Shown here piece by piece: positions 2,750 to 31,767 of a DNA stretch of 41,846 bases. The notes under the pieces were generated by a model that saw nothing but the letters and a program-made list of their open reading frames with translations, was not told where the DNA came from and did no database searches. Source of the DNA: a virus; the IMG/VR virus record IMGVR_UViG_3300045988_092202; one strand, 5' to 3'. Each line of letters opens with the position of its first letter. The first letter of the stretch is position 1. A program made the position numbers and the translations under genes.

Positions 2750-2907
2750 TTCGTTTCACCTCCAATCAGGTCCGCCATCATCAAAATAATATCGTCCGTG
2801 GTGGTTTCCAGGTTGTCCAGCCGCTCCCCGGTGTTGTCCGGTTTCGGCTCCAGGTCGGCCTGGGTCAGGCCGTTCAGGGCGGCCAGCTTTTTTGCGATAT
2901 CATCCAT
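2746..2907 (-). CDS. Small protein (53 aa) downstream of the tail fibre
   Basis: MDDIAKKLAALNGL...ILMMADLIGGETK. ATGGATGA overlap with the stop of the fibre gene. Confidence 0.5.
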   Translation of the reverse strand: MDDIAKKLAALNGLTQADLEPKPDNTGERLDNLETTTDDIILMMADLIGGETK

Positions 2908-4984: not shown

Positions 4985-5093
4985 CGCAACCACCATCCAA
5001 TCCCAGCACAATACAAACAATCCAGACGGGCAGCATCAGCACCATGGTCAGGGTCAGCACCACCAGCCACAGCAGATTTGCCAGCGTTTTCAC
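4977..5093 (-). CDS. Candidate hydrophobic micro-protein (38 aa)
   Basis: GTG 5091-5093 lies 7 nt after a G7 run. The product is (M)KTLANLLWLVVLTLTMVLMLPVWIVCIVLGLDGGCDD*. Its stop overlaps the fibre start (GATGATTGA). Confidence 0.35.
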   Translation of the reverse strand: MKTLANLLWLVVLTLTMVLMLPVWIVCIVLGLDGGCDD

Positions 5094-6980: not shown

Positions 6981-8687
6981 TTACGCCACCCCCTCTCGAT
7001 TTAATGCCCGCTGGACAGAGCCGTTTCCGCTTCCACCGTGAACCGGGATGTCCTCGGAGGTGGTTTCCGTGCTCATCCCTGTGCCCTCGCTCTCTACAGG
7101 TATCGGGTTTGCCCGTGCCGCCCGGAAGTCGTTCAGAAGCTCTTGCTTTTTGGAAATGTATCCGTTGGGAAGCCGCTCCACATACTGCTCAGGGGTAATC
7201 AGACCGTTCATGAGCAGATTGTCAAGGGTCTGCATGGAGGCCATTTCCGACCAGTAAGAAGACGCTCCCACCTCCTGCTCGATGGAAATCTGCATTTCCC
7301 GCAGAGAAGAGAAGTCGAACGGAACCGTGAAATTCTGCTTCGGAAGCTCCATGCCGAGAGGCTGCTCTCCCACATCGTCCATGTCCATTGCCGCTTCCAC
7401 CATACGGGTTCCGTATTTCACCGTCATGATATCAATCCAGATACGACCGGCATCCTCCAGACACTTGTAGTCGTTCTGCTTCGTAAGCTCCATTGGCGTG
7501 TTGGCCGCTCTCTGCAAGGCGATAATGGCAGAAGTGTTATCCGGCCTGGAATCGCCCATAGCCACGTCAGACGCGCCCAGAAGGGAGTGGGTCTTGTCAA
7601 AGGACAGCTCGATAAACTGGGCGATCTGAGGGCTGATTGTTGCACCGTCAATGATTTTTGCAACGTTGTCAACGTTGCCGTTTACGCCGACAGAGGTTCC
7701 CACTCTGCCGTCCCAGTTCTTGATCCGGTTCCGGTCGTAGACGATTTTCGGGAAGGCAGTGGTCAGAAGAGAAATGCCCACCAGCGCAAACATCTTATTG
7801 ATGAACTTCTGATTTGCCAGCAGTCCCGTGACCATGGCCTGTCCGTGGTAACAGTCCCGGATATAGTCCCAGTTCAGCCACACCAGCGGATACAGGGTGT
7901 ACTCCGTGTCGTAGGCATCCCGGATAATGCCCTTTTCCGTGGATTCAATGCACCAGATTGTGCCGGTATCCCGGTTCCGGAAATAATAGGTCAGCACCGT
8001 GACCTTATCGTCCGTGTAGCTGTCATACTTATTCTGGAATTTCTCGGAATCTGCCTGAATCTCGTCCGGGTCTGCAATCTTGCAAAGCCCCTGCTCATGG
8101 TTGGTCTCCACCTTGTAGCGCACATCCTCCACCAGCTCCCGCCGGGAAATGATGACGTAGGGCTGCCGCTGAACATCCCGGCAATTGGGATTTCCGAAAT
8201 GCACCCGCAGATTGTCCACGATCTCAGCGACAATTTCGCCCTTTACGTCCTGGCCGTTCTCAATGGTCGGGTCAAAGTAGAAGTGCATACATCCGTCACC
8301 CGTCACCGCCGCATTTCGCAGGAACTCACGGTTCAGAGCCACAATGCGGTTGCGCTTGATGATCGCCGCAAACTGATTGCTCACAATCTCGCATACCCGC
8401 TCCAAGTCCTTCATGGTTGCCCTGGATGTGGAGGGCATAGGAAGTGCCCGCAGGGTCAGGTTATCAGAGGTGATTGTGGAGACCTGGAAATTGATAACCC
8501 GCTTGAACATATTGTAAGTGGGGGTAGGCAAGCCGTTTGCCTCTACGCCTTCCCACTGATTGCCGATGTAAAAATCCTCGTTGACCTTCACCTGGTCGTA
8601 AAGGCCGATCTGGTTGTTGAATCCATAGCATTTTTCAAAACGCTTTTGGATTTCCTCGTTGGTTGGGATTGCCTGTTTTCTTGCCAT
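6981..8687 (-). CDS. Portal protein (568 aa)
   Basis: The size, the NEDFYIGNQWEG motif near the N-terminus, an acidic C-terminal tail and the position in the head module all fit. Confidence 0.8.
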   Translation of the reverse strand: MARKQAIPTNEEIQKRFEKCYGFNNQIGLYDQVKVNEDFYIGNQWEGVEANGLPTPTYNMFKRVINFQVSTITSDNLTLRALPMPSTSRATMKDLERVCEIVSNQFAAIIKRNRIVALNREFLRNAAVTGDGCMHFYFDPTIENGQDVKGEIVAEIVDNLRVHFGNPNCRDVQRQPYVIISRRELVEDVRYKVETNHEQGLCKIADPDEIQADSEKFQNKYDSYTDDKVTVLTYYFRNRDTGTIWCIESTEKGIIRDAYDTEYTLYPLVWLNWDYIRDCYHGQAMVTGLLANQKFINKMFALVGISLLTTAFPKIVYDRNRIKNWDGRVGTSVGVNGNVDNVAKIIDGATISPQIAQFIELSFDKTHSLLGASDVAMGDSRPDNTSAIIALQRAANTPMELTKQNDYKCLEDAGRIWIDIMTVKYGTRMVEAAMDMDDVGEQPLGMELPKQNFTVPFDFSSLREMQISIEQEVGASSYWSEMASMQTLDNLLMNGLITPEQYVERLPNGYISKKQELLNDFRAARANPIPVESEGTGMSTETTSEDIPVHGGSGNGSVQRALNREGVA

Positions 8688-9218: not shown

Positions 9219-10298
9219 TCAGGTAATCACATCTTTCGTAGCGGCACTCATGTACTTTCCATCCGCTTTCGCACAGCAGCGGAAAATGTCGCCAGGCGCA
9301 ACGGTCACAGCAGAACTGTACACCTTTGCTTCGGCAGAAGCATAGCGGGGGTCAGAGCCGTCAAGGGTGTAGTAAACAACACCGCTGGAGCTGTCCGTAA
9401 CCGTCGCCTTTCCGCTGGAAATGGATACAGACGGAGTAGGAGTGACGCTATCCTTCTTGCAGGCCACCGCCGCACCGGCACACAGAGAGGGCAGCACGAA
9501 AGCGTCGAACTTGCACCGGAACTGGAAGCGGTCGCCGTCCATGTTCTCAGAATCCTTGATGCCGCGCATAAGGTTAATCTTTTCGGGGGCGATGATGCTA
9601 TTTTTTGCAAAAATCGCAAAGTAGCAGTCATCCGGGAAGAACCGGGTCGGCACAGGCTTGACAACAAGGCCGTCAAACATCTTGATCTTGCCATTGGGGA
9701 TGGACTTTCCACCCAGAGAATCCAGTTCCACCCACTCGGTAGAGAGTTTCAGGACTTTCAGATAAGCTCTGGGGATGAACAGAGTGCCGGAATCATCCGG
9801 AACGCCCTCTTCGATCATTGCGGTATGCAGGTCAATGATCTGTTCCGCAATGGTGCTCTTGCCGGGTGCTGCCGCCAGAGCGGTATGAATGCCCGCCTCC
9901 GTGCACCACTTCTTCAGGCGGTACTTTTCCTTGAAAGGACGAATTTCCTTGTCGGTATACGCCTTCATAATGGCACCGGCCTTCTTGATGAAGAACTGTG
10001 CGTCATTATTGCCGCGGTCAACCGTCCGATCAAAGGAAATGTCCTGGGTCAGCTTGAATGCGTATCTGTAGTCGCCAACCTCGGTAGGAGTACCGAATCG
10101 GGAGCCGGTAGAGGGGTCTTGCTTCTTGTTGTAGTTGTTGACGGGAGACGTAGCGACTTCGTAAACATATACCATGTCGCTGCCGTTGAACTCAGCGTTC
10201 AGCGCATTGTTATATGCGCCCTCCGTAACAGATTTCAGGCTGTAGTATTCAGAAAGAGCCTTTCTGAACTCTTCGCCAAAGTGAATGGTTTCAGCCAT
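9219..10298 (-). CDS. Major capsid protein with a C-terminal Ig-like/CHB_HEX_C-like decoration domain
   Basis: 359 aa directly after the scaffold gene, with a strong RBS. The C-terminal YYTLDGSDP...Y motif is typical of chitobiase-C-like Ig domains. Confidence 0.8.
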   Translation of the reverse strand: MAETIHFGEEFRKALSEYYSLKSVTEGAYNNALNAEFNGSDMVYVYEVATSPVNNYNKKQDPSTGSRFGTPTEVGDYRYAFKLTQDISFDRTVDRGNNDAQFFIKKAGAIMKAYTDKEIRPFKEKYRLKKWCTEAGIHTALAAAPGKSTIAEQIIDLHTAMIEEGVPDDSGTLFIPRAYLKVLKLSTEWVELDSLGGKSIPNGKIKMFDGLVVKPVPTRFFPDDCYFAIFAKNSIIAPEKINLMRGIKDSENMDGDRFQFRCKFDAFVLPSLCAGAAVACKKDSVTPTPSVSISSGKATVTDSSSGVVYYTLDGSDPRYASAEAKVYSSAVTVAPGDIFRCCAKADGKYMSAATKDVIT

Positions 10299-11310: not shown

Positions 11311-12750
11311 TTAGCCCAGCATGTAGCTGCTGGAAACCCCGGTTCCGCACATGTAGCTGTAATAGTCCAAAGTGCTGTCGTCTTCTTCCTCGTCCGTCTC
11401 CGGTTCCTCGTTCCCGGCGGGGAGAGTGAAGGTCTGGGCAAAATACCGCAGAGCATCGGGGCCATGGGTGATTTCGTGGGGCTGCTTGGCTACGTCGTTC
11501 GGGTCTGTCTTGTCGTGCTGCAAGCATTTCAGGCTGTCGATCAGTGCCCCGCAGGTGGCGAAGATGATAAGTCCCGGCTTCCCGTCCTCCCGGATTTTCA
11601 GCATTTCCTTCAAGGCGTGCCAGCCCTGCTTCCGGTTATTGTCCGCCCGGTACAGAGCAAGGCCGCATTCCATGAAGGTGTTTGCCTGGGATTTTCCGTT
11701 TTCTCGGTTTCTTGCCCACAAATCCGGGGGCGCAATGGTGTAGTTTATCAGTTCATCGTGCCGGGTCAGCTCAAGCTGCATCCTGGCCGCCTCTGACACG
11801 ATCTGATCGGACATTTTATACTGCCGGTAGACGTAGCACCGCCCGTTGGGATCTTCCGCTACCCAGATACAGAAATGGCAGTCCAGGCCGTAGTCCATGG
11901 AGCGGTACTTGTTCCACTTCTCCGGAATCGGGAAGGGCTTGCAGGTGTGAATGCCATCCGTGAATTCCTCGAAGTACACGCCGCTCAGAGCGTTCCAGTC
12001 ACCGAACCGGTGTGCACGCCGCACGTCCTCCGGAAGCAAGTCCAGCTGCTCCACATAGTCCTTATTGATGTTCTTGTTGTCATCCACCGTAGCGGGAATG
12101 AAAACGTAATCATCCGGGTTCTCGGTTCCCCGGAAATCCCGGTCTACAAAAAGTCGTTTGACCCAAAAGTGGCCGACCGAACCTGGATTACAAGAAAGAT
12201 AGATTCTCTTCGGAAACTCGTTGTCGCCACGGACAATCGCCGCCAGACCTCGAAACTCGCTCTCCAGGAATTGTGTTGCCTCGTCAATGAAAAGCACGTC
12301 CCAGTTATTTCCCTGAAATTTTCCTTCGACTGCCGCTCCATAGTCCGGCATGTTGGAGAACTTGATCTTGCTTCCGTTTATCAGCGTCAGAAGGTGATCC
12401 GATTTATTGTACGAATACACCGATTCCGGGAGCAGCTTCAAGGCAGGCTGGATAATGGGGTTCTCAAGCTGGTCATACTCACGCCGGACAACAAGAATCT
12501 GGATTCCGGCGTAATTGAACGCAAGCAGCAGGAATTTCCGGACAATTGCCCAGGACTTGCCGCCGCCTCGCGCGCCGCCGTAGCAGGTGTACTTGCATGT
12601 GGAAAGGAAAAACTTCCACTGTGGTTCCGAGTTCGGAGCACCCAGGTCAACGATTATGCTGTTCTTTTCATCGTATTGTGCCCCTGCCGTCTTCCCCACC
12701 TCCTTGCAGACAAACAAAAAAGAGCCAAAGCAAATGTCTTTTTCAGACAT
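11311..12750 (-). CDS. terL: Terminase large subunit
   Basis: Walker A CYGGARGGGKS, Walker B VLFIDEA, and a C-terminal nuclease-like half. 479 aa. Confidence 0.92.
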   Translation of the reverse strand: MSEKDICFGSFLFVCKEVGKTAGAQYDEKNSIIVDLGAPNSEPQWKFFLSTCKYTCYGGARGGGKSWAIVRKFLLLAFNYAGIQILVVRREYDQLENPIIQPALKLLPESVYSYNKSDHLLTLINGSKIKFSNMPDYGAAVEGKFQGNNWDVLFIDEATQFLESEFRGLAAIVRGDNEFPKRIYLSCNPGSVGHFWVKRLFVDRDFRGTENPDDYVFIPATVDDNKNINKDYVEQLDLLPEDVRRAHRFGDWNALSGVYFEEFTDGIHTCKPFPIPEKWNKYRSMDYGLDCHFCIWVAEDPNGRCYVYRQYKMSDQIVSEAARMQLELTRHDELINYTIAPPDLWARNRENGKSQANTFMECGLALYRADNNRKQGWHALKEMLKIREDGKPGLIIFATCGALIDSLKCLQHDKTDPNDVAKQPHEITHGPDALRYFAQTFTLPAGNEEPETDEEEDDSTLDYYSYMCGTGVSSSYMLG

Positions 12751-12936: not shown

Positions 12937-13028
12937 TGGCGGAGCAGGCAGGACTTGAACCTGCACACGGAAATCCATCCGTGAACGGGGTAGCAACCCG
13001 CCGCAGTACCTGTTATGCTTACTGCTCC
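12937..13028 (-). tRNA. tRNA-Ser (anticodon GCU), type II with a long variable arm
   Basis: Cloverleaf folded by hand: acceptor GGAGCAG/CTGCTCC, anticodon loop TTGCTAC, variable arm CACGGA-loop-TCCGTG, T arm GCAGG-TTCAAGT-CCTGC, then G-CCA. Confidence 0.85.
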
Positions 13029-13156: not shown

Positions 13157-13231
13157 TGGCACCGATGGCTGGGGTCGAACCAGCACCCGCCGGGTCAAAG
13201 CCCGGTGCACCGCCTGTTGTGCTACATCGGC
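13157..13231 (-). tRNA. tRNA-like gene with an aberrant 6-nt anticodon loop (UUG/Gln-like, or a pseudogene)
   Basis: The acceptor (GCCGATG/CATCGGT), D arm (GCAC-AACAGGCG-GTGC), T arm (GCTGG-TTCGACC-CCAGC) and G-CCA are all canonical. The anticodon arm, however, is CCGGG-CTTTGA-CCCGG. Confidence 0.6.
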
Positions 13232-13853: not shown

Positions 13854-14261
13854 CTACTTGATGGCATCAATATAACGCCCGTCCCCGTTGCCAAACAGCA
13901 CCACGATAGGCGGCACGGCCTGCGCCTGCCCTGGCGGGGTGAAATAGTCCGTCCCTGCCTCCTTTGCCGCTATGGTGGCCTGATTGCGTCCCGTTGCCAG
14001 CGTCAAGGCGGCTACTTGGGTACGCATCCTGTCCAGCAGCACCGCCCGTCCGCTGTATGCGTTACTGCTGCTTTTGCCCCGCTGGTAGCACTCCCGCACC
14101 TCCGGGATGGAGTACCCGATGTAGGCGCAAAACATAGGCCATGTAACAATCCCGTGTGATCCGTCCGCGTAGTCCCGCAGAAAGGTATCAACCTTGCCTT
14201 TTAGCTCCTGCTCGGTCATGCAAAAAGCGATTGCGTAGCCGCTGTTTGCGTTGCCAGCCAT
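13854..14261 (-). CDS. terS: Terminase small subunit (135 aa)
   Basis: MAGNANSG...ELKGKVDTFLRDYADGS...WPMFCAYIGYSIPEVRECY is the typical Terminase_2-like N-terminal HTH pattern. ATG is at 14259-14261. Confidence 0.7.
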   Translation of the reverse strand: MAGNANSGYAIAFCMTEQELKGKVDTFLRDYADGSHGIVTWPMFCAYIGYSIPEVRECYQRGKSSSNAYSGRAVLLDRMRTQVAALTLATGRNQATIAAKEAGTDYFTPPGQAQAVPPIVVLFGNGDGRYIDAIK

Positions 14262-14570
14262 GGAAAACACCCCCAAAACCAGAACTTTTCCGTCTAAAAT
14301 GAATGGTAGCAAAGTTTTGCCCTGATGTCAAGCGGACTTGGCAAAAAAAGTTATATCGACCTGCGTTTTGTCTGCCGGTGCTGTGGTGTGCTGTCCTGCC
14401 CTGTGGGGCTTGCGTGTCGTGCCGTATATGCCACTGTGGGGCTGCTGGTTGACCTGTGCGGCCTATACAATATATAGGCAATGATTTACCATTTGGGCGG
14501 CATTTGCGCCGGCCTGGCGGACGCTCTGCGCCTCGCATGAAAATATTTTTGGGAAATGCGAAAAAAGGGC

Positions 14571-14599
14571 TTGACAAATGGGATATCCCATGATATAGT
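14571..14599 (+). promoter_or_regulatory. Near-consensus sigma-A promoter (TTGACA-17-TATAGT) with the palindrome TGGGATATCCCA in the spacer
   Basis: Read directly: -35 at 14571-14576 and -10 at 14594-14599. Confidence 0.7.
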
Positions 14600-14632
14600 G
14601 AAGCCATCCCAAAGGAAAGGAGGAAAAACAAA

Positions 14633-14776
14633 ATGACCATGCAGGAAGCATCCCGCATTATCTTAGGATTGCGCGCCGCTGGATGGACGGAGAAGGAAAT
14701 CAATGATTTCATCCTCTGGGTCGAAAGTGGAGACCCGCAATTCCGCCCAAAGTGCACTAAATCTGACGGGGAGTAA
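14633..14776 (+). CDS. Small protein (47 aa)
   Basis: AAAGGAAAGGAGGAAAAACAAA-ATG. Product: MTMQEASRIILGLRAAGWTEKEINDFILWVESGDPQFRPKCTKSDGE*. Confidence 0.6.
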   Translation: MTMQEASRIILGLRAAGWTEKEINDFILWVESGDPQFRPKCTKSDGE

Positions 14777-14822
14777 AAAGGTCGGGCCGGTTTTCCCGGC
14801 CCCGCCATAAAGGAGTGAAAAA

Positions 14823-14990
14823 ATGCCGGACAGTCAAGCGAAATCGTCCTGGGAAAAAGAAAATGTGCTAAAAGTCCTCGTAAAGGTCAATAGAAACCAG
14901 AACCCGCAATTATTTGATTTGCTGCAAAAAGCTGATAGTAAATCAGGTTTAGCCCGCGAACTTATGAATAGAGCAGTCAGCCAAAAATAG
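14823..14990 (+). CDS. Small protein (55 aa), possibly RHH-like
   Basis: AAAGGAGTGAAAAA-ATG. Product: MPDSQAKSSWEKENVLKVLVKVNRNQNPQLFDLLQKADSKSGLARELMNRAVSQK*. Confidence 0.55.
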   Translation: MPDSQAKSSWEKENVLKVLVKVNRNQNPQLFDLLQKADSKSGLARELMNRAVSQK

Positions 14991-14997
14991 AAAGCAA

Positions 14998-15029
14998 TCC
15001 CCCAGACCTTCCGGCCTGGGGGATTTTTT
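14998..15029. terminator. Bidirectional terminator shared by convergent genes
   Basis: TCCCCCAGACC-TTCC-GGCCTGGGGGA flanked by A-rich and T-rich runs. Confidence 0.7.
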
Positions 15030-15213
15030 ACGCTTCTTCGGCTTCCCGCCGCTTGCGCAGCGTGTCTAGTATATACTGTTGCACGCTTTGCCCCGCGTCC
15101 GCCGCCGCCTGGCGTATCTGCTGGCCTTCTTCTTTGGTCGGGCGGATCATGATGTTGTCCCGCCCCTTGTTATATTTGACGCTTGCCCTAGTGTGCGCTT
15201 CCGTCACTGCCAT
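15028..15213 (-). CDS. Ribbon-helix-helix (Arc/CopG-like) regulator (61 aa)
   Basis: MAVTEAHTRASVKYNKGRDNIMIRPTKEEGQQIRQAAADAGQSVQQYILDTLRKRR. ATG 15211-15213 follows GGAAGGATGTGATAGT. Confidence 0.7.
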   Translation of the reverse strand: MAVTEAHTRASVKYNKGRDNIMIRPTKEEGQQIRQAAADAGQSVQQYILDTLRKRREAEEA

Positions 15214-15235
15214 ACTATCACATCCTTCCGATACT

Positions 15236-15342
15236 ATAGTATCATGCGGCATCATAACCGTCAACGTACAAAATTCACATAATATAACCGTTAACATTGT
15301 GCAGCATTGCCACTGGACAATGTCAGTTAACGGTGCTATGAT
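15236..15342. promoter_or_regulatory. Divergent promoter/operator region: P(RHH) TTGACG-17-TACTAT on minus, P(J-domain) TGGACA-17-(TGc)TATGAT on plus, and three ACCGT(T/C)AAC boxes
   Basis: The boxes lie at 15257-15265, 15287-15295 and, inverted, 15326-15334. They overlap the minus -35 element and the plus spacer. Confidence 0.6.
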
Positions 15343-15392
15343 ATAGGCACAAAGCAAAACACCAAACAACAACAGATTTGGAGGATCACACC

Positions 15393-16346
15393 ATGAAATA
15401 CTTCACCACCTGTACCACCCTGGACGAGCTTAAGAAAGAATATCGCCGCTTGGCAATGGCCAACCACCCCGACCGGGGCGGCGGCGAGGCCACCATGAAG
15501 GCCATCAATGCCGAGTACGACGCGGTTTTCCCCGCCTTTAAGCTGGCCTATAACCGCACCGCCGAAACCCCCACCGCCGAGACCGCCCAGAGCACCCGCA
15601 GCGAGTTCTACACCGCCAACGGCTGGAAGGGCAGCAACTACGATTCCGCCCGCAGCTTAAAGGAGATCGCCCAGCTTGTCCGCCAGTTCATCAAGGAGCA
15701 GTTCCCCACCTATAAGTTCAGCGTCCGCACCTCCTACGCTTCCATGTGTCAGGAGCTCCACGTTGACCTGAAGGAAGCCCCCTGTAAGGTCTATAAGGAC
15801 TTTGAGGAGCTGACCGAGGAAGAAAAGAACACCGTCATTCGCAAGGCAGAGTATAATAGCGTTTTTGCCCCGACAAGCTGGACAGATGCCGGGCTGAAAG
15901 CCGAGTTTGAACGCATTTGGGAAACCAAAGGCAGCTTTTACCGGGTGCTCTCCGAACAGATTCAGGCCGCCGTGGAAGCGGTGGACGGCTATGTACAGTC
16001 TTACAATTTTGAGGATTGCGACGGCATGATCGATTATTTTCACGTCAATTTCTATTACTTCGGATGCGGAACGGATAACGTTCAGTTTGTCCCCAAAACC
16101 GCCCGGATCGCCAAACCCGCCGAGCCGAAGCCGGAAGAAAAGAAAGCCGATTCCCTCCGGGTGGTTTTCGTCCCTGAGTTTGACGGCGTAGAGGTTTATT
16201 TCCCCGGCAAGCCCGCCGAAGCCACCAGAACCGCCCTGAAAGCCGCCGGGTATCGCTGGCATAATAAAAAGCAATGCTGGTACGCCCGGAACACGGAGCA
16301 GCACTTGCAAGCCCTCCGGGCAATCGAAACCGGCCTGACCGCATAA
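15393..16346 (+). CDS. J-domain (DnaJ-like, HPD motif) protein with phage/conjugative-element-type C-terminal domains (317 aa)
   Basis: N-terminus: LDELKKEYRRLAMANHPDRGG...MKAINAEYD. C-terminus: VEVYFPGKPAEATRTALKAAGYRWHNKKQCWYA. RBS is TTGGAGGATCACACC. Confidence 0.85.
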   Translation: MKYFTTCTTLDELKKEYRRLAMANHPDRGGGEATMKAINAEYDAVFPAFKLAYNRTAETPTAETAQSTRSEFYTANGWKGSNYDSARSLKEIAQLVRQFIKEQFPTYKFSVRTSYASMCQELHVDLKEAPCKVYKDFEELTEEEKNTVIRKAEYNSVFAPTSWTDAGLKAEFERIWETKGSFYRVLSEQIQAAVEAVDGYVQSYNFEDCDGMIDYFHVNFYYFGCGTDNVQFVPKTARIAKPAEPKPEEKKADSLRVVFVPEFDGVEVYFPGKPAEATRTALKAAGYRWHNKKQCWYARNTEQHLQALRAIETGLTA

Positions 16347-16383
16347 GCGGGGCTTTCGTCCCCCATTGAAAGGAGATAAAACG

Positions 16384-16608
16384 ATGAAAAACTTTTGGAT
16401 TGCAGCAGATGTAGAGGCAAACGGAAAGTATTGTGCTTTTGCCTTTCCTGTTTCGGAAAACGAAAACTTGGTAAGAAGACTTCAGTTCAAACCGGGCAAT
16501 CTTTACAACGCCAATATCATGCCTAGCAAGAAAGCGGCCGTTGAAGTTGTCGCCGCCTGGAATGATGCACACAAGGCAAACGGGAATTACATGTTTGCGG
16601 AATCATAA
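16384..16608 (+). CDS. Hypothetical protein (74 aa)
   Basis: GAAAGGAGATAAAACG-ATG, with coding continuity after the J-domain gene. Confidence 0.6.
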   Translation: MKNFWIAADVEANGKYCAFAFPVSENENLVRRLQFKPGNLYNANIMPSKKAAVEVVAAWNDAHKANGNYMFAES

Positions 16609-16611
16609 AGC

Positions 16612-16643
16612 AAAAGCCGCCCCCATTTCGGGGGCGGCTTTTT
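16612..16643. terminator. Bidirectional terminator
   Basis: AAAAGCCGCCCCC-ATTTC-GGGGGCGGCTTTT, a perfect 13-bp stem. Confidence 0.8.
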
Positions 16644-16646
16644 GTG

Positions 16647-19600
16647 TTATTGCTGCTCTTCCCACCAGTCCACCACGTCAAGCTTTCCGCCGTACAGCTT
16701 CCAAAGCTTTTTCGCCATGTCCGCGCCGTAAATCTCCGCCAGTGCCTCCCGCTGCTTTTTGGCCTTGCCTTTTCCGTAGCCGTTGAAGCTTTGGTAAATT
16801 TCATAGGCCTGTGCATACTGCGCCGGGGTCATTCCCAGTTCCTTCCGTGCGTAGTCATATTTCAGCTCTGTCTTGTCGGATTTCGGGTTTTCCGGGTCAT
16901 AGTCCGGCATGTAAGCCTTCATCAGCTTATCCATTGCGCTTTCGCTGATACTTGCGCTGGTGATCGCCCGGTATTTCGCGCTGTTTCCCGTGCCGTCGGC
17001 GTGTTTCACCGCGTCCAGCACTTTCAGATAGGCCGTGGTGCTGACCCCGGCTTCCCGCGCCTCCAGATACTTTGCCGTATCGCCGGATACGTTTTCCTTG
17101 TACGCCGCTTTCTGGCTGTCGGTCATTTTGCTATAGGTGTCGTATGCGCTTTCCAGGGTCTCTTTCGCCGGCTTTTCGTCATAGCCGTAGTCCCATACCT
17201 TTTGCATGTCGCTGATGCCGCTTGCCATCTGCTTTGTAACCACGTCCATGACCGCCTCTTTTCCGATTTCCTCGGCGGTTCCGGTTTTCACCTCCTTGTA
17301 GTCCGTCACTGCCGCCCGGGCGTAGTCCGCCGCGTATCCCTTGACGGTTTTCAGGGCTTCCGCTTTCAGCTCGTCCGTGAGCTTCTGATAGTCCGGATTG
17401 TTCATCAGGGCACCGTAGTACTCCGATACCTTCCCGCCGTACTCCCGTTGATAGGTTTCCCGCTGTGCCCCGTCCAGCTCCACCGCCTCCCCGGCGGCGT
17501 TTTTTACCTGCATGGGGGCTTGCCGTTCCGGGTAGATTTCTTTGTCGTACTGCCCGCCGGTAGCGTCAGACAGTGCGCCCAAAGATTCCGTGATTGCGTT
17601 TGGCTGGTAGATTTGGCTGTTTGTCGTGTCAAACAGGTTGGCATATACGCCGCCCCGCTTCTGTTCCTCGCCCAGGCCGGAAATCTTTTTCGGCAAATCC
17701 TGTGCGCCGCCGGGAACGTTGGTCAGGAAAGCGTTTTTCGCGTATTCCGCCGCCGTCTGGCCTCTGGTGTCCCGGTAGTATCCGTCTGCCGCTTTCGCCC
17801 CCTGCTTGACGATCTGGGGAATGAAGCTGGATGCCGTTTCCCCGGCGTATTTTGCAACCGCTCCAAACGCCGCCGTCGGGTCTTTGGCTTCCACCGCGTC
17901 GCTGATGTCGGAAACCATGTCCGCGATATTTTGCAGTCCCGTCACCATGGGGCTGTCCATAAAAGCCCGGAAAACCGATTCCGCCGTTGCGCCCGGAAGG
18001 GCTTTCAGCATTCCCTGAATGTCGTCCTCCTGCGCCAATTCCGCCCCCAGATACATGTGGGTGTTGAACGGTTCCAGACTGTCCAGGCTGCTGATTACGT
18101 CTCCCGCCTGCCACTTGGTATCCCCGCCGGTGCTTTCCCTGGCTGCCGCCGACCAGTTGATCTGTGCCCCGCTCAGGCCGTCCGCCTGTTCCAGTGCCTT
18201 CTTGTTTTTGTCGTCGGCATTGGATACCCGGATAATTCCCTTTGCCGCCAGTGCCGTAAAGCCGCCAATCAGGGCAAGGCCGGTCACGCCCCGGCCAAAG
18301 TCCGAGGCAACCTGCCGCTGCCGGTTCACGTCAATGGACTTTCCCTGCTTTGCGTCGTGGATCAGGGAGGCCAGCTCGCCCAGACTTTTCATTACGCCGG
18401 TGCTGTAGTCCACGCCGGTCTGGGTTACGTTCATGGTCGTTCCCACAAAGGGCATGGCCGAATCTGCCGCAAATTCTCCGGCCGCTCCCAGTGCTCCGTC
18501 TCCGGATAAGCCTTTCTTTGCCTTCTTGCCGTATCGGGCAAGGGCAGAACCGTGTTCTTTTGTGTCCCCGTACTTGTCCGTTGCTTCCCAGGTTGCGTCC
18601 TTGAACGTCCGCCGGTTGGCCGTGAACTGGGACAGCCGGTCAATGTCCTCATCTCCCAGGCCGGAGTTTCTCAGCCCCTCCAGGCTTTCCGCCACCGCCG
18701 CGTTGGTGCCGCCCTCGAATACCTTGTCCGTTACCTCCAGGGCGTAATTCATGTACTTCTGATAGGCGTACAGGAGCCGCATTCCCAGGTTGCCCGTGGA
18801 GCGGAACGTTTTTCCGCCGTACTTTAACCTGTTCCCATCAGAAACGGCGGAATAGGAAGCGTCTACGTCTGTTTCAATGGGGATATTCAGCTCCACGCAT
18901 AGGGAAGCGAAGTCCGCCGCGCTTTTTGCTCCGTCGATGTAGGCTTTCGTGTGGGTGAAATCGTTTCCGGTCGTCCGTTTCCCGGTGAATTTGGAAATCA
19001 GCATGTCCATAGCCTGTCCGCCCAGGCTGTCGCTTGCCGAATCCAAAAGCCCCGTCGTTGCGTTTCCGCCGATATTCCGTCCAAAGCTTCTGAAACTGGT
19101 CAGGATGTTCTGTTTCCGGATTCCCATCATCACTTCTCTGTCCGTCCGCCGCCGGAAATCGTCCGGCATGGAGGCAATCTGGGTGTTGGCAATCTTCTTC
19201 AGGTCGTCAAAGTCCAGCTTTTTCAGGATTCTCCGGGCGTTCCAGGTCAGCTTGTCCGAGCTTCCGAACAAACCGGTTGTCTTTCTGGCCTGGGCGATCT
19301 GTGTAATTACCTTCTGCATTCCCGCCGTGTCTCCGTCCTCCACCGATTCAACGGCGATGGCAAGCCGGGTGATGCCCATGGAAACGTCCTTTCTCCAATC
19401 CTCAAAGCTCTTTCCGCTCTTTTCGGCGTTGTAGGTGGTCATTTCCTTTTTCAGGCCGGAAAGCCCCTTGATGGCCGTTTCGCAGGCGGATTCCGGGTCT
19501 GCCGCGTCCTTCATCGTCCCGCCGATGTTGAACGCCTGCACCGCCTGTCCGGCCTCCGTGGCCGTCTTTGCCAAACGTTGGTTTAATTCCGTGTATTCGT

Positions 19601-22600
19601 CCACGTCTCCGCTGTTGAAAAGCGACTTTACCGCAAGCCTCGCCGTTGCTACGTCCGTAGCAGTCAGGTTGTCCTTCTGCATCAGGTATTCATATTCTGA
19701 CCGTACCCGTTCCGGGGTGCTGGTTCTCTCCCTGGCCACGTCCATCACGTCCATGTTCCGCAGCTGTTGATAGTCTCCCGCCTTCGGGTCTACGGCAAGG
19801 GTTCCCTTGTAGCTTTCCCGGATGTCGTTGTCCGTTCCTCTCAGGCCGCTGTTGGTGAAGCTCTTGGACTTCATCGTCTTGCCCTCTGCGCTTGCCTGTG
19901 CGCCGGGAACATAGCCGTCCGGTGTCTGTGCCTGTCCGTTCGTTTCTGCCCTCTGCGCCCCTTCCTGGGCTTCCTGTGGCATTTCCTGCGGTGCGGCTTG
20001 CTGCTGTACCGGCTGTTCGTTCTGGACTTTCGGCTGCGGTACCGGCTGTGTGTTCCGCGCCTGGGGCTGCTGCTGTGCGTTCTGGACTGGGGGCTGTCCG
20101 TCTTGTGTGGACATGCCCTGGCTGTCCGCCGCTTGTGCACTATCAGAAAGCCTATTGACTTCCGAAACGTTTTGCTGTATAGTCGTGTTGGAAGTAGCTC
20201 CCCCGGCGGACGTTGCTTCCGAGCTGGGAGCAGTCCCACCAGGCGTTTCGGACGTAAAGGAATCGGCTTGTACAGATTCCGGGGTGGCTATGCTCCCGGC
20301 TTTTTTGTTTACATATTCCGTTTGCACAAATACGTCAAGCCGCTTGTCAGAAACTACGGCGACCACCGTCGTCGTTTCATTACCATTTGCTTTTCTGAAT
20401 TCGATGGCCGGTTTCCCGTTGTAGTCGCTGTCCGAGCGTTTAATGGAATCCGCGTTTTGTACAATGTCCGGGATTGCGATATAATCCGCTTCTGTTACCG
20501 CTCTTTGCCCCCTAGGTGCCTCTTTGCTTTCGTCCCCGTGGCTTTTCTTGATTTTTCGGATTTCGTCTTCCCCCAAGGTGAGATTATACCCGTCAACGTC
20601 AAGCCCTGTGGACTTGGAAATATCCGAGGCCAGCTCGTCTCCAATTGCGCCGAAGTACATCTTCTTGTTTGTTTTTTCCTCTCCGGAAAGCGCATTCTTG
20701 ACGAACTGTTTGAATTGGTCGATGCTGTCGCAAAGCACAATCCGCTTGCTGGATTTCCAGTTCTCGATCTGCTCTTGGCTGTAACTTCTTAATTTGTTCC
20801 AAACGCCGCCGCTTCCGGCGGCGTTTTTTTGCTCCGCCGCAGGCTCCGCCGAACCTTGCCCGTCCTCCATCCCCAGAGCCATTTTTGCCCTTCTGTCCAT
20901 TTCCGTGTCCGCCTTCGGTGCTTCCGGCTGGCTCTCCGGTTTCTGGCTTTCCTGGTTCATCACCCGGTCAAAGGCCTTGTCAAATTCCGCTTCCGAATCT
21001 GCCAGTAAATCCCCCGCTCTCGCTGGCTGCTCCTGGCCTGCCAGTGCTCTTGCCATCTGCTCCCCGTCAAGCGGTGCGGCCTTTTCGCCGTCCGGGGCTT
21101 CTGCCGCCGCCTGGGCAGGCTGTTCCTGGGGGTTCTGTGCGGCGGCTTCCGGAACGTCTGCGTTTTCTCCCCGGTTGGCAAGCTTGTATTTGGTCGTGGC
21201 CACCAGGCTGTTGAAACCTCCGGCAAGCCCGGAGACGATCATGGAGTAGAGGATGTCGTTCACCGTTCCCCTGTCCACAATGGCCTGAGCTTCCTCCAGG
21301 CTCATGTTCGGGTTCATGGTCATCATCTGGGCAACTTCCAGATTCCGCTCGCTTTTGTCTCGCATGATTGCCGCATCCGAAAACAGGCTCGCCAGCTGGG
21401 AGGCCGCTTCCTGCCCGCCCTCAATGCCCATGCTTCGCAGGAAGTTCAGGATATATCCGGCGCCGCCCTTCGCCGTGGAAATGCTGATTAGATTGTCCAG
21501 GGGGATTTTCTCCGTCAGCGCGTCCACCGTTGCGCTTGCGGTGGCGTATAGAAGCGCCTGGTCAGCGTTTGCTCCCCGGTTTGCCGCCGACTGCATGGCA
21601 CTGCCGAAGGTGTTTGCGCCCGCAATGCCCGCACCCACCAGGGAGCCGCCGCCGGTGAGCGTACCCAGAGCGATCCGTGCCCCGGTGTCCGCCATGCCCA
21701 TTCCCACGTCGTAGGCTCCCCCGGCAATTGCCCGCAGGGGGTTACTTCCGTCTCCGACGATGTTCTGCTTTACCTCGCCGCGCACGGCTCCAGACCAGTT
21801 TTGCAGCTGGGTTCCCTGGTTATATGGGTCAAGGTCGGTAAATTGTCCGGTTCCGTTCAGTGCCTCTCCCAGATAGCCGAGACTTGCCATGGAGCCGCCT
21901 ATCAGGTTCGCCGGGACAGTCAGTGTGCTGTTCCAGATCGGGTGCTTGTCTGCCGCTTCCTGCGCCGCCTGCTGCTGTTCGGCGGCCTTCTGGGCATTGG
22001 TTTCCCGTCTGCGTACCTCTGCCAGCTTCTCCAGGCTTTCCGCGTCCAGGTGCTCGTTTTCGGCAAACCAGGCTTCCAGCTCAGGCAGGCCGGTAGCCAG
22101 CGGGTCGGAAGCCGTGTCCTTCCGGTAGTTGTATTCGTCCAGTTTCTTCTGGCCTTCCTCGGAAAGCCGGGAAATGCTGTCCAGTCCGCTTTCCATGGTG
22201 GCCTGGTTCTGCTCCCGCTCCGCCTGAGAAACCGCCGCCTTCTTCTCGTTTAGCTCCTGGTCATAGTTCTGCCGTGCCTTCCGATTGGTCTCCTGAATCT
22301 GCTGGATCAGTGCGTCCTCATCGGAAATCCCCTCCATTGGAGCTGCTGCCGATGTTTCCGCCTGTGCCTTCTGGTAGGCGTTCTTCCAGTCTTCCGCCCG
22401 GGTCTCCTTGCGTTCCTGCTCGTAGTCCTCCAGCTCCTGCTTTTTCTGCTTGGTGTTCCGTCTGGCCTCCACGATCCTCCGGGTGGTGTCCGTGTAGGCA
22501 TCCTTCTTCGGGGCGTTGCTTCCCCGGTTCCAGAGCCGGTCTGCCGCCGTCACGGCGTTCGGGCTGTCCACCGTCTTCCCGGTTTTCAGCTGGTACTGCT

Positions 22601-22862
22601 TGATGGCGTTCTTGTATTCCTCCATCCCCTTGTCCTGGGTCTTTTCCCGGTCAGCCCGGTAGGCCTCGATTGCCTCCGCCCGGCTGTTGACCCCCGTTAC
22701 GGTAGCCGTTCCATCCGGGTTGTAGGTTATTGTGGACTTTTTCTTTTTCTTCTTTTCTTCGCCGTCTTCCTGCCTGCCGCTGGACAAATCCCGTCCGTCG
22801 CTCAGAGTATTTTTTGTCAGGTCTACAGGCCTGTTTCTCCATGCGCTCTGGTTTCCTGCCAT
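16647..22862 (-). CDS. Giant polyvalent virion (ejection-type) protein, 2071 aa, with an embedded PBECR-like nuclease module
   Basis: Single ORF. It has a coiled-coil N-terminus, a Gly/Ala-rich hydrophobic block (aa ~310-560) and Q/P-rich linkers. At aa ~690-855 it has ...LTLGEDEIRKIKKSHGDE...ADYIAIPDIVQNADSI...AIEFRK...VVAVVSDKRLDVFVQTEYV. Confidence 0.85.
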   Translation of the reverse strand: MAGNQSAWRNRPVDLTKNTLSDGRDLSSGRQEDGEEKKKKKKSTITYNPDGTATVTGVNSRAEAIEAYRADREKTQDKGMEEYKNAIKQYQLKTGKTVDSPNAVTAADRLWNRGSNAPKKDAYTDTTRRIVEARRNTKQKKQELEDYEQERKETRAEDWKNAYQKAQAETSAAAPMEGISDEDALIQQIQETNRKARQNYDQELNEKKAAVSQAEREQNQATMESGLDSISRLSEEGQKKLDEYNYRKDTASDPLATGLPELEAWFAENEHLDAESLEKLAEVRRRETNAQKAAEQQQAAQEAADKHPIWNSTLTVPANLIGGSMASLGYLGEALNGTGQFTDLDPYNQGTQLQNWSGAVRGEVKQNIVGDGSNPLRAIAGGAYDVGMGMADTGARIALGTLTGGGSLVGAGIAGANTFGSAMQSAANRGANADQALLYATASATVDALTEKIPLDNLISISTAKGGAGYILNFLRSMGIEGGQEAASQLASLFSDAAIMRDKSERNLEVAQMMTMNPNMSLEEAQAIVDRGTVNDILYSMIVSGLAGGFNSLVATTKYKLANRGENADVPEAAAQNPQEQPAQAAAEAPDGEKAAPLDGEQMARALAGQEQPARAGDLLADSEAEFDKAFDRVMNQESQKPESQPEAPKADTEMDRRAKMALGMEDGQGSAEPAAEQKNAAGSGGVWNKLRSYSQEQIENWKSSKRIVLCDSIDQFKQFVKNALSGEEKTNKKMYFGAIGDELASDISKSTGLDVDGYNLTLGEDEIRKIKKSHGDESKEAPRGQRAVTEADYIAIPDIVQNADSIKRSDSDYNGKPAIEFRKANGNETTTVVAVVSDKRLDVFVQTEYVNKKAGSIATPESVQADSFTSETPGGTAPSSEATSAGGATSNTTIQQNVSEVNRLSDSAQAADSQGMSTQDGQPPVQNAQQQPQARNTQPVPQPKVQNEQPVQQQAAPQEMPQEAQEGAQRAETNGQAQTPDGYVPGAQASAEGKTMKSKSFTNSGLRGTDNDIRESYKGTLAVDPKAGDYQQLRNMDVMDVARERTSTPERVRSEYEYLMQKDNLTATDVATARLAVKSLFNSGDVDEYTELNQRLAKTATEAGQAVQAFNIGGTMKDAADPESACETAIKGLSGLKKEMTTYNAEKSGKSFEDWRKDVSMGITRLAIAVESVEDGDTAGMQKVITQIAQARKTTGLFGSSDKLTWNARRILKKLDFDDLKKIANTQIASMPDDFRRRTDREVMMGIRKQNILTSFRSFGRNIGGNATTGLLDSASDSLGGQAMDMLISKFTGKRTTGNDFTHTKAYIDGAKSAADFASLCVELNIPIETDVDASYSAVSDGNRLKYGGKTFRSTGNLGMRLLYAYQKYMNYALEVTDKVFEGGTNAAVAESLEGLRNSGLGDEDIDRLSQFTANRRTFKDATWEATDKYGDTKEHGSALARYGKKAKKGLSGDGALGAAGEFAADSAMPFVGTTMNVTQTGVDYSTGVMKSLGELASLIHDAKQGKSIDVNRQRQVASDFGRGVTGLALIGGFTALAAKGIIRVSNADDKNKKALEQADGLSGAQINWSAAARESTGGDTKWQAGDVISSLDSLEPFNTHMYLGAELAQEDDIQGMLKALPGATAESVFRAFMDSPMVTGLQNIADMVSDISDAVEAKDPTAAFGAVAKYAGETASSFIPQIVKQGAKAADGYYRDTRGQTAAEYAKNAFLTNVPGGAQDLPKKISGLGEEQKRGGVYANLFDTTNSQIYQPNAITESLGALSDATGGQYDKEIYPERQAPMQVKNAAGEAVELDGAQRETYQREYGGKVSEYYGALMNNPDYQKLTDELKAEALKTVKGYAADYARAAVTDYKEVKTGTAEEIGKEAVMDVVTKQMASGISDMQKVWDYGYDEKPAKETLESAYDTYSKMTDSQKAAYKENVSGDTAKYLEAREAGVSTTAYLKVLDAVKHADGTGNSAKYRAITSASISESAMDKLMKAYMPDYDPENPKSDKTELKYDYARKELGMTPAQYAQAYEIYQSFNGYGKGKAKKQREALAEIYGADMAKKLWKLYGGKLDVVDWWEEQQ

Positions 22863-29713: not shown

Positions 29714-29830
29714 TTATCCCCACTGTTCCGCCATAGCTTTTGCAATCCCTGGGAAGGTCTTGCTTCTGACCTTTGCCCGGAACGCCTTGCAAACGGTTTG
29801 TGATTCTTCACAGGCTATCAAAACTTTCAT
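29714..29830 (-). pseudogene. Internally deleted remnant of a phage methyltransferase-like gene (38-aa in-frame mini-ORF)
   Basis: MKVLIACEESQTVCKAFRAK joined to VRSKTFPGIAKAMAEQWG. These are the typical N- and C-terminal ends of a roughly 200-aa family annotated as DNA cytosine methyltransferase (from memory). ATGA coupling to the upstream gene. Confidence 0.55.
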
Positions 29831-30723
29831 ACTTCCTCCGTTTCCATAAAATCCTCCATCCCCATCTGTCCCGGCAGCACATCGTATTCCATCCACCAGC
29901 GGAACACATCTTCGGCGGTGGTTCCCATACGCCACGAACCATCCAGCTTTCCACGCCGTCTGCGTTCTTCTAGCATCCTATCGAATGCCCGCAGATAGAG
30001 ATTTTTGTACTTCGGCCACCGGGCGAACTCGACTTCACGGGCTTTTTTGCCAGCCACCGGGCATCCGATACAGCCAACCCGGCGTTGCCCCTCTGCGTAA
30101 AGCGGGTTCATAGGGCATTGGGCATCCTCCAAAAAGCTGTATACATCCTCGTTTGTCCAGTCGATAATGGGGTTCACGACCCGCTTCGCTTTCAGGCGGC
30201 AATTTTCAAAAAGCATCCGCTTTTCGTCATTATCGTTTACAAGAATGATGTTTTCTTGCTTCGTTTTTCCTAGCTTTTCGTAGATTCCACGGTTGTTTTT
30301 TCTGGATACGGATTCAGCCCAACGAACCCCGGTGCAGATAAACCGCCCTGCCCCTCCTGTTTCTTTCAGCACAGAACAGCAGTAGCGCACCAGCCGTGTA
30401 GGCGGCATGAGCTTTTGCGGAATCAGGCTCCACATGGATACCCTCTGGCCTTTGTAAGTAGGCATATTAACCGTGCATTTATAGCCCAGTTCCTCGAGCC
30501 GCTTGAGCTCACTTCGGACGAACCGCACCGTCTCCGGGGCATCAGCGGTTGTGTGGCTGTGCAAAAACTCGCAAGGAATGCCGGAGCGCACCGCAAGCTC
30601 GGTGATAACCCCGGAATCTTTTCCGCCGGAAACGCAAATCACCAATGGCTTCTGATAGGCCATGAGGGACATATCAGAGGCAGCTTTCAGGCGTTCGATT
30701 GCCATTTGCTCCAAGTCATTCAT
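29827..30723 (-). CDS. PAPS-reductase-family (adenine-nucleotide alpha-hydrolase) protein (298 aa)
   Basis: The PP-loop VICVSGGKDSGV and the C-terminal Cys cluster CIGCPVAG. ATG is at 30721-30723. Confidence 0.85.
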   Translation of the reverse strand: MNDLEQMAIERLKAASDMSLMAYQKPLVICVSGGKDSGVITELAVRSGIPCEFLHSHTTADAPETVRFVRSELKRLEELGYKCTVNMPTYKGQRVSMWSLIPQKLMPPTRLVRYCCSVLKETGGAGRFICTGVRWAESVSRKNNRGIYEKLGKTKQENIILVNDNDEKRMLFENCRLKAKRVVNPIIDWTNEDVYSFLEDAQCPMNPLYAEGQRRVGCIGCPVAGKKAREVEFARWPKYKNLYLRAFDRMLEERRRRGKLDGSWRMGTTAEDVFRWWMEYDVLPGQMGMEDFMETEEV

Positions 30724-31748: not shown

Positions 31749-31767
31749 CTTGCATTTCCTTTCTGCG

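Follow-up and report, generated by a model that had tools for sequence, protein, structure and literature searches.

A J-domain–LPD29 protein under predicted ribbon-helix-helix control in a cargo hotspot of a temperate phage of gut Clostridia

The viral record IMGVR_UViG_3300045988_092202, whose entire 41.8-kb stretch is here called the window, belongs to a P22-portal-type temperate phage or prophage of gut Clostridia. A preliminary description of positions 14571-16643, made from the letters alone, singled out an island with a J-domain gene that appeared to be repressed by a ribbon-helix-helix (RHH) protein. We compared this island with relative loci fetched for the purpose (referred to by L-numbers, L002 to L105). 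Judged by the gene arrangements of these relatives, the region is a cargo hotspot between the putative small terminase gene (terS) and a polyvalent-protein gene; it is served by two reusable regulators, and the J gene is one of its frequent cargoes. Nearly every feature described before was found in place, including the promoters, the two bidirectional terminators and the open reading frames (ORFs), and the region reads as follows (aa, amino acids; CTD, C-terminal domain).

13854-14261, minus strand: putative small terminase gene terS, left edge of the hotspot; likely start ATG at 14261, assigned by position
14571-14599, plus strand: promoter P1, TTGACA-17-TATAGT, 11 of 12 consensus matches
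14633-14776, plus strand: orf47, with a Shine-Dalgarno sequence
14780-14806, plus strand: GC hairpin between orf47 and orf55, -19.9 kcal/mol, z-score -2.4, no U-tract on the plus strand
14823-14990, plus strand: orf55, with a Shine-Dalgarno sequence
14996-15025, both strands: bidirectional intrinsic terminator between the convergent orf55 and RHH61, serving both transcripts, with U6 behind it; -21.7 kcal/mol, z-score -4.0
15028-15213, minus strand: RHH61, predicted RHH repressor of 61 aa, with a Shine-Dalgarno sequence, convergent with orf55
15264-15236, minus strand: promoter P_RHH, TTGACG-17-TACTAT, 9 of 12 matches
15254-15265, plus strand: predicted operator box 1, ATAACCGTCAAC, overlapping the -35 of P_RHH
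15284-15295, plus strand: predicted operator box 2, ATAACCGTTAAC, between P_RHH and P_J, overlapping neither hexamer
15326-15334, minus strand: predicted operator box 3, GTTAACGGT, in the 17-bp spacer of P_J
15314-15342, plus strand: promoter P_J, TGGACA-17-TATGAT with an extended -10 TG, 10 of 12 matches
15393-16346, plus strand: J-LPD29-CTD protein, 317 aa, with a Shine-Dalgarno sequence
16384-16608, plus strand: orf74, 74 aa, with a Shine-Dalgarno sequence, co-transcribed with the J gene
16612-16642, both strands: bidirectional intrinsic terminator at the end of both the J operon and the 2071-aa gene that converges with it, -28.0 kcal/mol, z-score -5.6, with a U-run
16647-22862, minus strand: 2071-aa polyvalent protein with a PBECR3 nuclease domain (2.3e-18), right edge of the hotspot

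All three promoters are of the sigma-70 type, and RNA folding showed the 5′-untranslated region of the J gene to be unstructured. The arrangement of a 61-aa RHH gene convergent to orf55 and divergent from the J gene was as described, and so was the length of the 74-aa ORF behind the J gene, which starts with the ATG at 16384. Its own promoters and terminators, and its position on the strand opposite to its neighbours, had been noted for the island before; both hold, and therefore the island is not co-transcribed with the late genes, which excludes simple late co-transcription.

The island had also been called self-contained, and here the comparison led to a different view. It consists of two independent regulatory modules, and orf47, orf55, orf74, the RHH gene and the J gene recombine freely among the relatives. 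Module A comprises P1, orf47 and orf55, and module B comprises the RHH gene and, divergent from it, the J-LPD29 gene and orf74. L007 has the order P1-orf48-orf55-J and lacks both RHH61 and orf74, L104 carries RHH, J and an orf74-like gene and lacks module A, and L088 and L089 have module A only. The RHH gene controls only small ORFs, orf74 among them, in L102, and ORFs of 38-68 aa at a prophage end in L097-L100. Within the same hotspot, L002 (6166-7398, minus strand) also holds a Bro-N/ANT antirepressor gene, a small CopG/RepB-like RHH gene of its own and an insertion sequence with a DDE transposase; the Bro-N/ANT set is a second, immI-like module.

The link between RHH61 and the J gene rests on the boxes that lie between them. 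The motif ACCGTYAAC occurs three times in the window, at 15257, 15287 and, on the minus strand, 15326, and these occurrences span 78 bp, with 0.5 expected per window by chance. The boxes are also picked up as repeats, one direct (12 nt) and one inverted (17 nt). No further RHH61 box was found in the window, the one-mismatch matches at 1606 and 26404 being at chance level. The three boxes had been said to overlap both divergent promoters, which is true of boxes 1 and 3 but not of box 2. Seven aligned loci share the plan of the RHH-cargo intergenic region and have three boxes at conserved positions; the shared order is RHH start, box at the RHH promoter, middle box, cargo -35, box, -10 and CA-rich leader. 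The spacer box of the cargo promoter is often a perfect palindrome in the relatives (ACCGTTAACGGT, TGAGTTAACTCA or ACATGTGTACATGT), and three classes of RHH protein and box can be told apart.

Class 1: RHH N-terminus RASVKYNKGRDNIMIRP; box ACCGTYAAC, ACCGTTAACGGT type; found in the window, L017/L020 and L042
Class 2: RHH N-terminus AVLKYQRxRDNIMIRP; box GAGTWWACTC, TGAGTTAACTCA type; found in L097-L100 and L104
Class 3: RHH N-terminus KANAKYxxxLDRIVIQP; box ATGTGTMCATGT, ACATGTGTACATGT type; found in L002/L003/L090 and L101-L103

Each box motif clusters solely in loci of its own class, and the class of the box tracks the N-terminal arm and β-strand of the RHH protein (its N-terminal 25 residues), the C-terminal helices being constant. 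The J gene of L104 is 95% identical to that of the window and has the same promoter backbone, yet all three of its boxes and the N-terminus of its RHH protein belong to class 2. Similarly, the RHH protein of L101 is a chimera, the C-terminal half of which is identical to that of the window, while its N-terminus and its boxes are of class 3. Such co-variation and such chimeras are as expected if the β-sheet and the arm of the RHH protein read the boxes. The earlier suggestion of repression by the RHH protein thus gains comparative support from seven loci and three co-varying classes, and repression of the J gene by RHH61 through the three boxes is, at the level of sequence comparison, well supported.

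In Pfam, RHH61 matched NikA-like (4.4e-5, 24 bits against a cutoff of 27), ParD (4e-4, 21.2 against 27.3) and TacA (8e-3, 16.6 against 21), and in NCBIfam it matched MobA (2.5e-5). Searches against the PDB gave weak matches to Arc (E value of 0.04-0.08) and DUF1778. Its 302 homologues include many with a NikA-like match, and several relatives carry PF21983. A role of RHH61 as an antitoxin of the ParD/TacA type was considered and rejected, the gene being monocistronic between a terminator and a divergent promoter, with no toxin domain nearby.

Module A appears to have a regulatory circuit of its own. A perfect 14-bp palindrome, ATGGGATATCCCAT, which had been missed in the preliminary description, lies in the spacer of P1 at 14578-14591; it is present as a single copy in the window, with 0.04 copies expected. 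All 6 fetched loci that encode an orf55 homologue have a promoter of the form TTGACA-N-ATGGG-N4-CCCAT, against 0 of 100 other loci, and in L103 it had been predicted before the sequence was looked at and was then found. Because this promoter accompanies all orf55 loci and none of the others, orf55 is likely, on these comparisons, to be an autoregulator of P1 that occupies the ‘aca position’ and binds the palindrome, the presumed operator of module A. The orf55 family numbers 19 proteins. It is the only gene common to the variable small-ORF operons, being the last gene in L088/L089 and the first in L086/L087, and the array of L089 holds up to eight small genes and ends in orf55. Together, orf55 and P1 show a combination that marks acr-aca operons, namely a conserved small regulator and a variable small-gene operon whose promoter carries an inverted repeat.

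P1 had been described as driving a 47-aa ORF and a 55-aa RHH-like ORF. Both ORFs exist, but the RHH assignment of orf55 found no statistical support (hhalign probability of 0.6% against the RHH61 family and 0.1% against CopG); its S-K-S-G-L-A-R motif resembles helix B of CopG by eye only. Homologues of orf47, for which no match was found in Pfam, PHROG, PADLOC or NCBIfam, are paired with orf55 in L103, L088 and L089, and in L023 a further one immediately precedes a J gene. The hairpin between orf47 and orf55 has a counterpart in L007 (about 3665-3695), where another GC-rich hairpin of different sequence, likewise without a U-tract, separates the first small ORF from orf55 at the same place. 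Processing, stabilisation or attenuation are conceivable roles of this element.

The 317-aa product of the J gene comprises a J domain (residues 1-56, with the HPD at 25-27), the α/β core of LPD29 (about 77-235), a linker (236-252) and the CTD (255-317). In the AlphaFold2 (AF2) model, the linker is of low confidence (disordered) and the CTD forms a ββαββα arrangement (LKAAGYRWHNKKQCWY). A bona fide J domain fused to a domain of the polyvalent type had been claimed, and the claim stands: the HPD is present, and Pfam LPD29 (PF18847) matched residues 89-152 with 40 bits against a cutoff of 27 (E value of 6.7e-10). All PDB sequence matches of the protein were to J domains. Among 45 relatives of 61-95% identity, LPD29 was detected in 45, DnaJ in 44 (E < 0.01) and DUF5710 in 18 (E < 0.01, best 5e-4), and many J-LPD29 relatives carry a precomputed PF00226 match. 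H25, P26 and D27 are invariant in these 45 proteins and align with the HPD of DNAJA1 and of Escherichia coli DnaJ, and the basic residues K14, R18 and R19 of helix II are nearly invariant. The AF2 model (mean predicted local distance difference test score, pLDDT, of 79) contains helices at 10-24 and 32-56 that correspond to the hairpin of helix II, HPD and helix III, and Foldseek against the PDB superposed it on the J domain of Tim14 (1.9 Å over 44 residues, 34% identity). The J domain is therefore real but minimal or truncated.

As for the remainder of the protein, Pfam DUF5710 (PF18974) matched the C-terminus below threshold (0.015; 15.4 bits against a cutoff of 26.5), and the CTD is treated here as DUF5710-like only. 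A CTD profile gave nothing significant against PDB sequences, the best match being the NOT-box of CNOT3 (E value of 0.14), and all matches in BFVD were uncharacterised phage proteins with LPD29 or DnaJ. The co-transcribed orf74 had no family match in Pfam or PHROG; homologues with 74-93% identity were found in L102, L103, L104 and L089, in operons that are RHH-controlled or of the orf55 type and that may or may not include a J gene. A reading of the island as a defence system was tried with PADLOC, which gave no match, and was rejected.

An exhaustive search assigned 2,709 representative clusters to the J-LPD29 family, whose members are encoded by phages, plasmids and conjugative elements and also form the N-terminus of polyvalent proteins. 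The J+LPD29 unit, corresponding to residues 1 to about 245, is found alone, with the CTD or at the head of larger proteins, and those of 550-1061 aa carry RadC, MuF_C, DUF6908, DUF3560 or methyltransferase domains. The J part was matched in 204 plasmid records. In L103 (2838-3320, minus strand), a 160-aa phage protein has a J domain, 79% identical to that of the window, joined directly to the CTD, with no LPD29; it aligns over its full length with a 172-aa J protein of Acinetobacter conjugative plasmids (34% identity, E value of 7e-35). These alignments suggest that LPD29 was inserted into an older J+CTD protein of mobile elements. A J domain followed by a C-terminal G-x-R-W...K-x-W domain, likewise without LPD29, was also noted in L004 (6001-6519, plus strand).

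J genes adjoin orphan Dam methylases in two lineages of large phages, and DUF6908 and DUF3560-like genes are further neighbours. In a Parabacteroides element the J gene lies beside DUF4313, DUF4120, DUF4121 and an N6-methylase, and in L105 it belongs to an early operon adjoining a helix-turn-helix (HTH) switch. These contexts point to an entry or establishment function common to phages and conjugative elements, and not to morphogenesis. Annotated phage genomes yielded only three distant matches, all unannotated, and a search of the literature found no report that places J proteins of mobile elements in anti-defence or leading regions.

A separate observation concerns contig ends. Several viral contigs of 44-79 kb (L024 and L027, and also L015, L022, L025 and L033) end in an AT-rich tract 90-260 bp past the terminator of the J gene; L024 and L027 stop at the identical nucleotide, and L027 runs on into an Illumina adapter. 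This suggests a physical genome terminus right beside the J gene in the L024/L027-type lineage.

Our starting points for a mechanism were thus the anatomy of the locus, the J and LPD29 assignments, the co-variation of operators and repressors and the modular shuffling, all read in silico, and from these we infer RHH binding, expression timing, the engagement of DnaK and the client or purpose of the J protein. Host RNA polymerase would drive both cassettes, each being limited by its own repressor. In module A, P1 would drive orf47 and then orf55, which would bind the palindrome and shut its own operon. In module B, oligomers of RHH61 would occupy the three operators in the P_J spacer, at the -35 of P_RHH and at the site between them. 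Both module B promoters would fire when the DNA enters a naive cell, the cargo would be turned off as RHH accumulates, and in a lysogen it would be silent. An operator in the core of the cargo promoter, combined with RHH autoregulation, predicts such an entry burst, shut-off and silence in lysogens. This circuit logic favours a burst followed by shut-off over the steady expression from the prophage that had been suggested before.

The J protein itself probably recruits the host Hsp70 chaperone DnaK. Its minimal J domain, with the HPD and a basic helix II, would dock on host DnaK and trigger ATP hydrolysis, and DnaK would thereby be loaded onto whatever LPD29 and the CTD hold. The most likely purpose would be early establishment or counter-defence, in which Hsp70 would remodel or titrate a protein or DNA complex of the host or the phage. 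Tight shut-off would be needed because an unregulated hijacker of DnaK is probably toxic, as is the case for Rki (gp057w) of phage RB43, an early, host-DnaK-specific protein that stabilises sigma-32 and is toxic when unregulated (PMC3486835). The toxicity of Rki provides a rationale for placing a J gene under a repressor. A redirection of DnaK with an anti-defence or takeover role had been suggested before; the gene neighbours seen in relatives would suit such a role, and Rki is an example of a phage J-protein that can work via DnaK.

Several points weigh against this reading. With 24.7 bits, the match to Pfam DnaJ (PF00226) fell just short of the threshold of 27.8 and spanned positions 13-47 of the 63 in the profile, and the J domain has no clear helix IV. 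A Foldseek search of the region behind the J domain, which had been proposed earlier, was run; with the full-length AF2 model, it returned J domains only and no significant PDB match for LPD29 or the CTD. RHH61 matches RHH families only, with Pfam scores below the gathering cutoffs. No member of the orf55 family had a Pfam match, nor did a profile search of the PDB yield any, and the AF2 monomer of orf55 (pLDDT of 57) is all-helical, with no detectable DNA-binding fold. For orf47, orf74 and the J protein, no anti-defence or defence family was found in Pfam, PHROGs, NCBIfam or PADLOC, none of which is dedicated to anti-defence. A homologue of RHH61 is missing from the closest relatives, L006-L013, and in L007 the J gene lies directly downstream of orf55; RHH control is therefore optional. 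The association of RHH with J is also partly a matter of ascertainment, about half of the loci fetched via RHH homologues carrying a J gene. With these points taken into account, we judge the chances to be slightly better than even that the region provides a self-limited early cassette with a DnaK-recruiting adaptor for establishment or counter-defence.

The main rival explanation casts the J protein as a helper of replication or establishment, in which the DUF5710-like CTD would bring the J domain to a replication initiator or to DNA and DnaK would activate or remodel the complex. Precedents for such a role are the release of lambda P from DnaB, the monomerisation of Rep-type initiators by DnaK/DnaJ and the J domain of T-antigen. 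It would account for the weak DUF5710 matches in 18 of the 45 relatives, for a PHROG ‘primase’ match to the C-terminus (1.1e-7) and for a top BFVD match annotated as ‘DNA topoisomerase I’. The occurrence of DUF5710 in fusion with Rep_3 initiators of Acinetobacter plasmids and of a DUF5710-like domain on primases points in the same direction, and so do a short J+CTD homologue between rep and parA on a conjugative plasmid and the early position of the L105 J gene in its operon by the HTH switch. However, DUF5710 remains below its cutoff in the window protein (15.4 against 26.5 bits), and the J gene lies far from the early/replication region (about 27-36 kb), inside a hotspot where cargo is shuffled. 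Moreover, close relatives that keep the hotspot (L088, L089 and L102) lack the J gene, which is thus dispensable for replication. We consider this role unlikely, if the strongest of the competing ones.

Less likely are the roles of a moron, of an antirepressor and of an assembly chaperone. Genes on the strand opposite to the lytic genes, with sigma-70-type promoters, flanking terminators and a hotspot of variable content, could also be a moron that is on in lysogens and benefits the host by lysogenic conversion, superinfection exclusion or defence. Yet a cargo promoter with an operator in its core, together with an RHH gene that is autoregulated, predicts that the cargo is silent at steady state, PADLOC gave no match, and the module also occurs in plasmids, in a conjugative-type element and in polyvalent proteins, for which Iyer et al. 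(PMC5512222) propose a role early in invasion; prophage expression of this kind seems improbable to us. An immI-like induction module would have the J protein use DnaK to inactivate the repressor of its own or a competitor phage, much as Ant acts in P22. The layout of RHH repressors and divergent promoters beside virion and packaging genes does recall P22 immI, and a Bro-N/ANT gene accompanied by an RHH-like gene occupies the same hotspot in L002, but J-LPD29 has no similarity to the Ant or Bro families in Pfam or PHROG, and its broad spread over plasmids and polyvalent proteins misfits a repressor-specific role, which makes this idea very improbable. We give even less credence to a co-chaperone of morphogenesis that would recruit DnaK for the folding or assembly of the adjacent virion or packaging proteins. 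Some phages do encode co-chaperones of their own, gp31 of T4 being an example, and the J gene adjoins terS, TerL and the head genes. It lies, however, on the opposite strand with an early-type promoter and a repressor of its own, it is missing from close relatives with the same virion genes, and its homologues reside on elements that form no virions, namely plasmids and conjugative elements.

The surroundings of the hotspot are those of a temperate tailed phage with most of its genes on the minus strand. The packaging and virion block contains the P22-type portal (6981-8687), the major head protein (9219-10298) and the large terminase TerL (11311-12750), intact at 479 aa; the tail fibre is encoded at 2900-5020, the M15 endolysin at 1961-2584 and a tyrosine integrase at 40011-41345. 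The early region, at about 27-36 kb, includes DUF1351, a protein of the metallo-β-lactamase fold and a 3′-phosphoadenosine 5′-phosphosulfate (PAPS) reductase. Hosts of the relatives are gut Clostridia (Faecousia, Pseudoflavonifractor and uncultured Clostridiales). The island had been placed between two virion blocks; the left one is there, with terS, TerL, head, portal and tail fibre, but the right flank, where ORFs of 420, 156 and 654 aa follow the 2071-aa gene, carries no structural annotation. Giant-gene homologues of the 2071-aa protein stop at the same hotspot in L007, L088, L089 and L101-L104. The sizes of such homologues in the relatives range from 1163 to 2125 aa, always with the end at the hotspot, and in the window protein the PBECR3 domain (barnase/EndoU/colicin-like) occupies residues 739-854, with long low-complexity stretches elsewhere. 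At the other edge, terS is assigned by position, no family match having been found, NCBIfam included; in many loci, homologous ORFs with a length of about 145-155 aa precede TerL and run divergently from a J gene.

Further observations were made in these flanks. A promoter-like sequence, TTGACA-17-TACCAT, lies at 14303-14331 on the minus strand, about 40 bp ahead of the likely start codon of terS and divergent from P1; terS may have a promoter of its own because the terminator at 16612-16642 should halt minus-strand transcripts coming from the polyvalent-protein gene. Two tRNA genes are located between terS and TerL (12937-13028 and 13157-13231, minus strand). One is tRNA-Ser(GCT), and the other has no normal anticodon in ARAGORN, yet scores 53.7 bits as a tRNA in Rfam. 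The Rfam scan found only these two tRNAs, both outside the island, and no known RNA element within it. A small Cys_rich_KTR ORF precedes TerL in L101 (5347-6143), L103 (6151-6946) and L104 (1179-1974), where the gene calls show TerL as two consecutive genes, the first of about 200 aa and the second of about 291 aa; this may represent a split or interrupted terminase or an artefact of gene calling. In the early region of the window, a PAPS-reductase-domain protein and a protein with YdcK β-solenoid repeats are encoded at 29827-30822 and 30915-31892, both on the minus strand; phage PAPS reductases have been discussed as possible DNA-modification or anti-Dnd factors (NAR 2026, PMC13551039).

The main gain would arise should the J-domain family of mobile elements turn out to be a general Hsp70-hijacking device; the very large size of this uncharacterised family, and its sharing among phages, conjugative elements and plasmids, suggest that hijacking of Hsp70 is a common step of establishment. 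Rki is the sole phage J-protein characterised so far, and counter-defence and establishment genes are almost unexplored in phages of strictly anaerobic gut Clostridia. The three RHH operator classes are natural specificity swaps that are directly testable and usable as orthogonal switches, and the two regulators of the hotspot, orf55 and RHH61, form a conserved anchor, located from terS to the polyvalent gene, for guilt-by-association mining of early or anti-defence cargo. In a bolder version, to which we assign a low probability, the J-LPD29 and J+CTD proteins would form a general device with which mobile elements commandeer host Hsp70 at entry: the free form would aim DnaK at host immunity or at a DNA-bound complex to be dismantled, the N-terminus of an injected or transferred polyvalent protein would act like the mitochondrial Tim14/Pam18 import motor, with DnaK pulling in and refolding the effector, and the RHH switch would exist because the device is toxic if left on.

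Among known systems, immI of phage P22 comes closest in layout. There, the small RHH repressors Arc and Mnt control Pant and Pmnt in a burst-then-shut-off circuit with the antirepressor Ant as cargo. The island shares with it a small predicted RHH repressor, the predicted circuit logic, divergent overlapping promoters, operators in the promoter core and a location among late and virion genes of a P22-portal-type phage; RHH61, divergent from the cargo, is placed like Mnt, and orf55, inside the cargo operon, is placed like Arc. It differs in its cargo of J-LPD29 and small ORFs and in its three operators, P22 having two and Ant, and the similarity of RHH61 to Arc is marginal (E of about 0.04-0.08), while orf55 is not demonstrably an RHH protein. 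Operons with Aca regulators offer another likeness, namely a strong promoter with an inverted repeat, variable small cargo genes and a conserved small regulator. The RHH regulator Aca14 also represses neighbouring anti-defence operons, and LPD29 genes occur inside aca4 operons (NAR 2026, PMC13551039). Compared by description only, the Aca14 operator is an AT-rich inverted repeat over the -10, unlike that of the island; here, moreover, no known acr or anti-defence gene is present, and RHH61 is divergent from the cargo, not co-operonic with it.

With Rki, again compared by description, the J protein shares a phage-encoded J domain with an HPD, whereas Rki has neither LPD29 nor the CTD and comes from a virulent T4-like coliphage. 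Heat-shock control in Clostridia also differs from the setting of coliphages and their hosts. The plasmid J proteins, such as WP_015060286.1 of Acinetobacter, have the same J domain and a C-terminal G-x-x-W ... K-W domain; they lack LPD29 and are uncharacterised. Polyvalent proteins, finally, share the Pfam LPD29 core; J-LPD29 heads those with RadC, MuF_C, DUF3560 or methylase domains, and the J gene abuts the 2071-aa polyvalent protein. Solo forms of LPD domains have been proposed to help early phases of invasion (Iyer et al. 2017, PMC5512222). The fusion of a J domain to LPD29 appears to be undescribed because the text of that study contains 0 mentions of a J domain or DnaJ. The difference from the polyvalent proteins is that J-LPD29 is here a stand-alone gene with a promoter and a repressor of its own.

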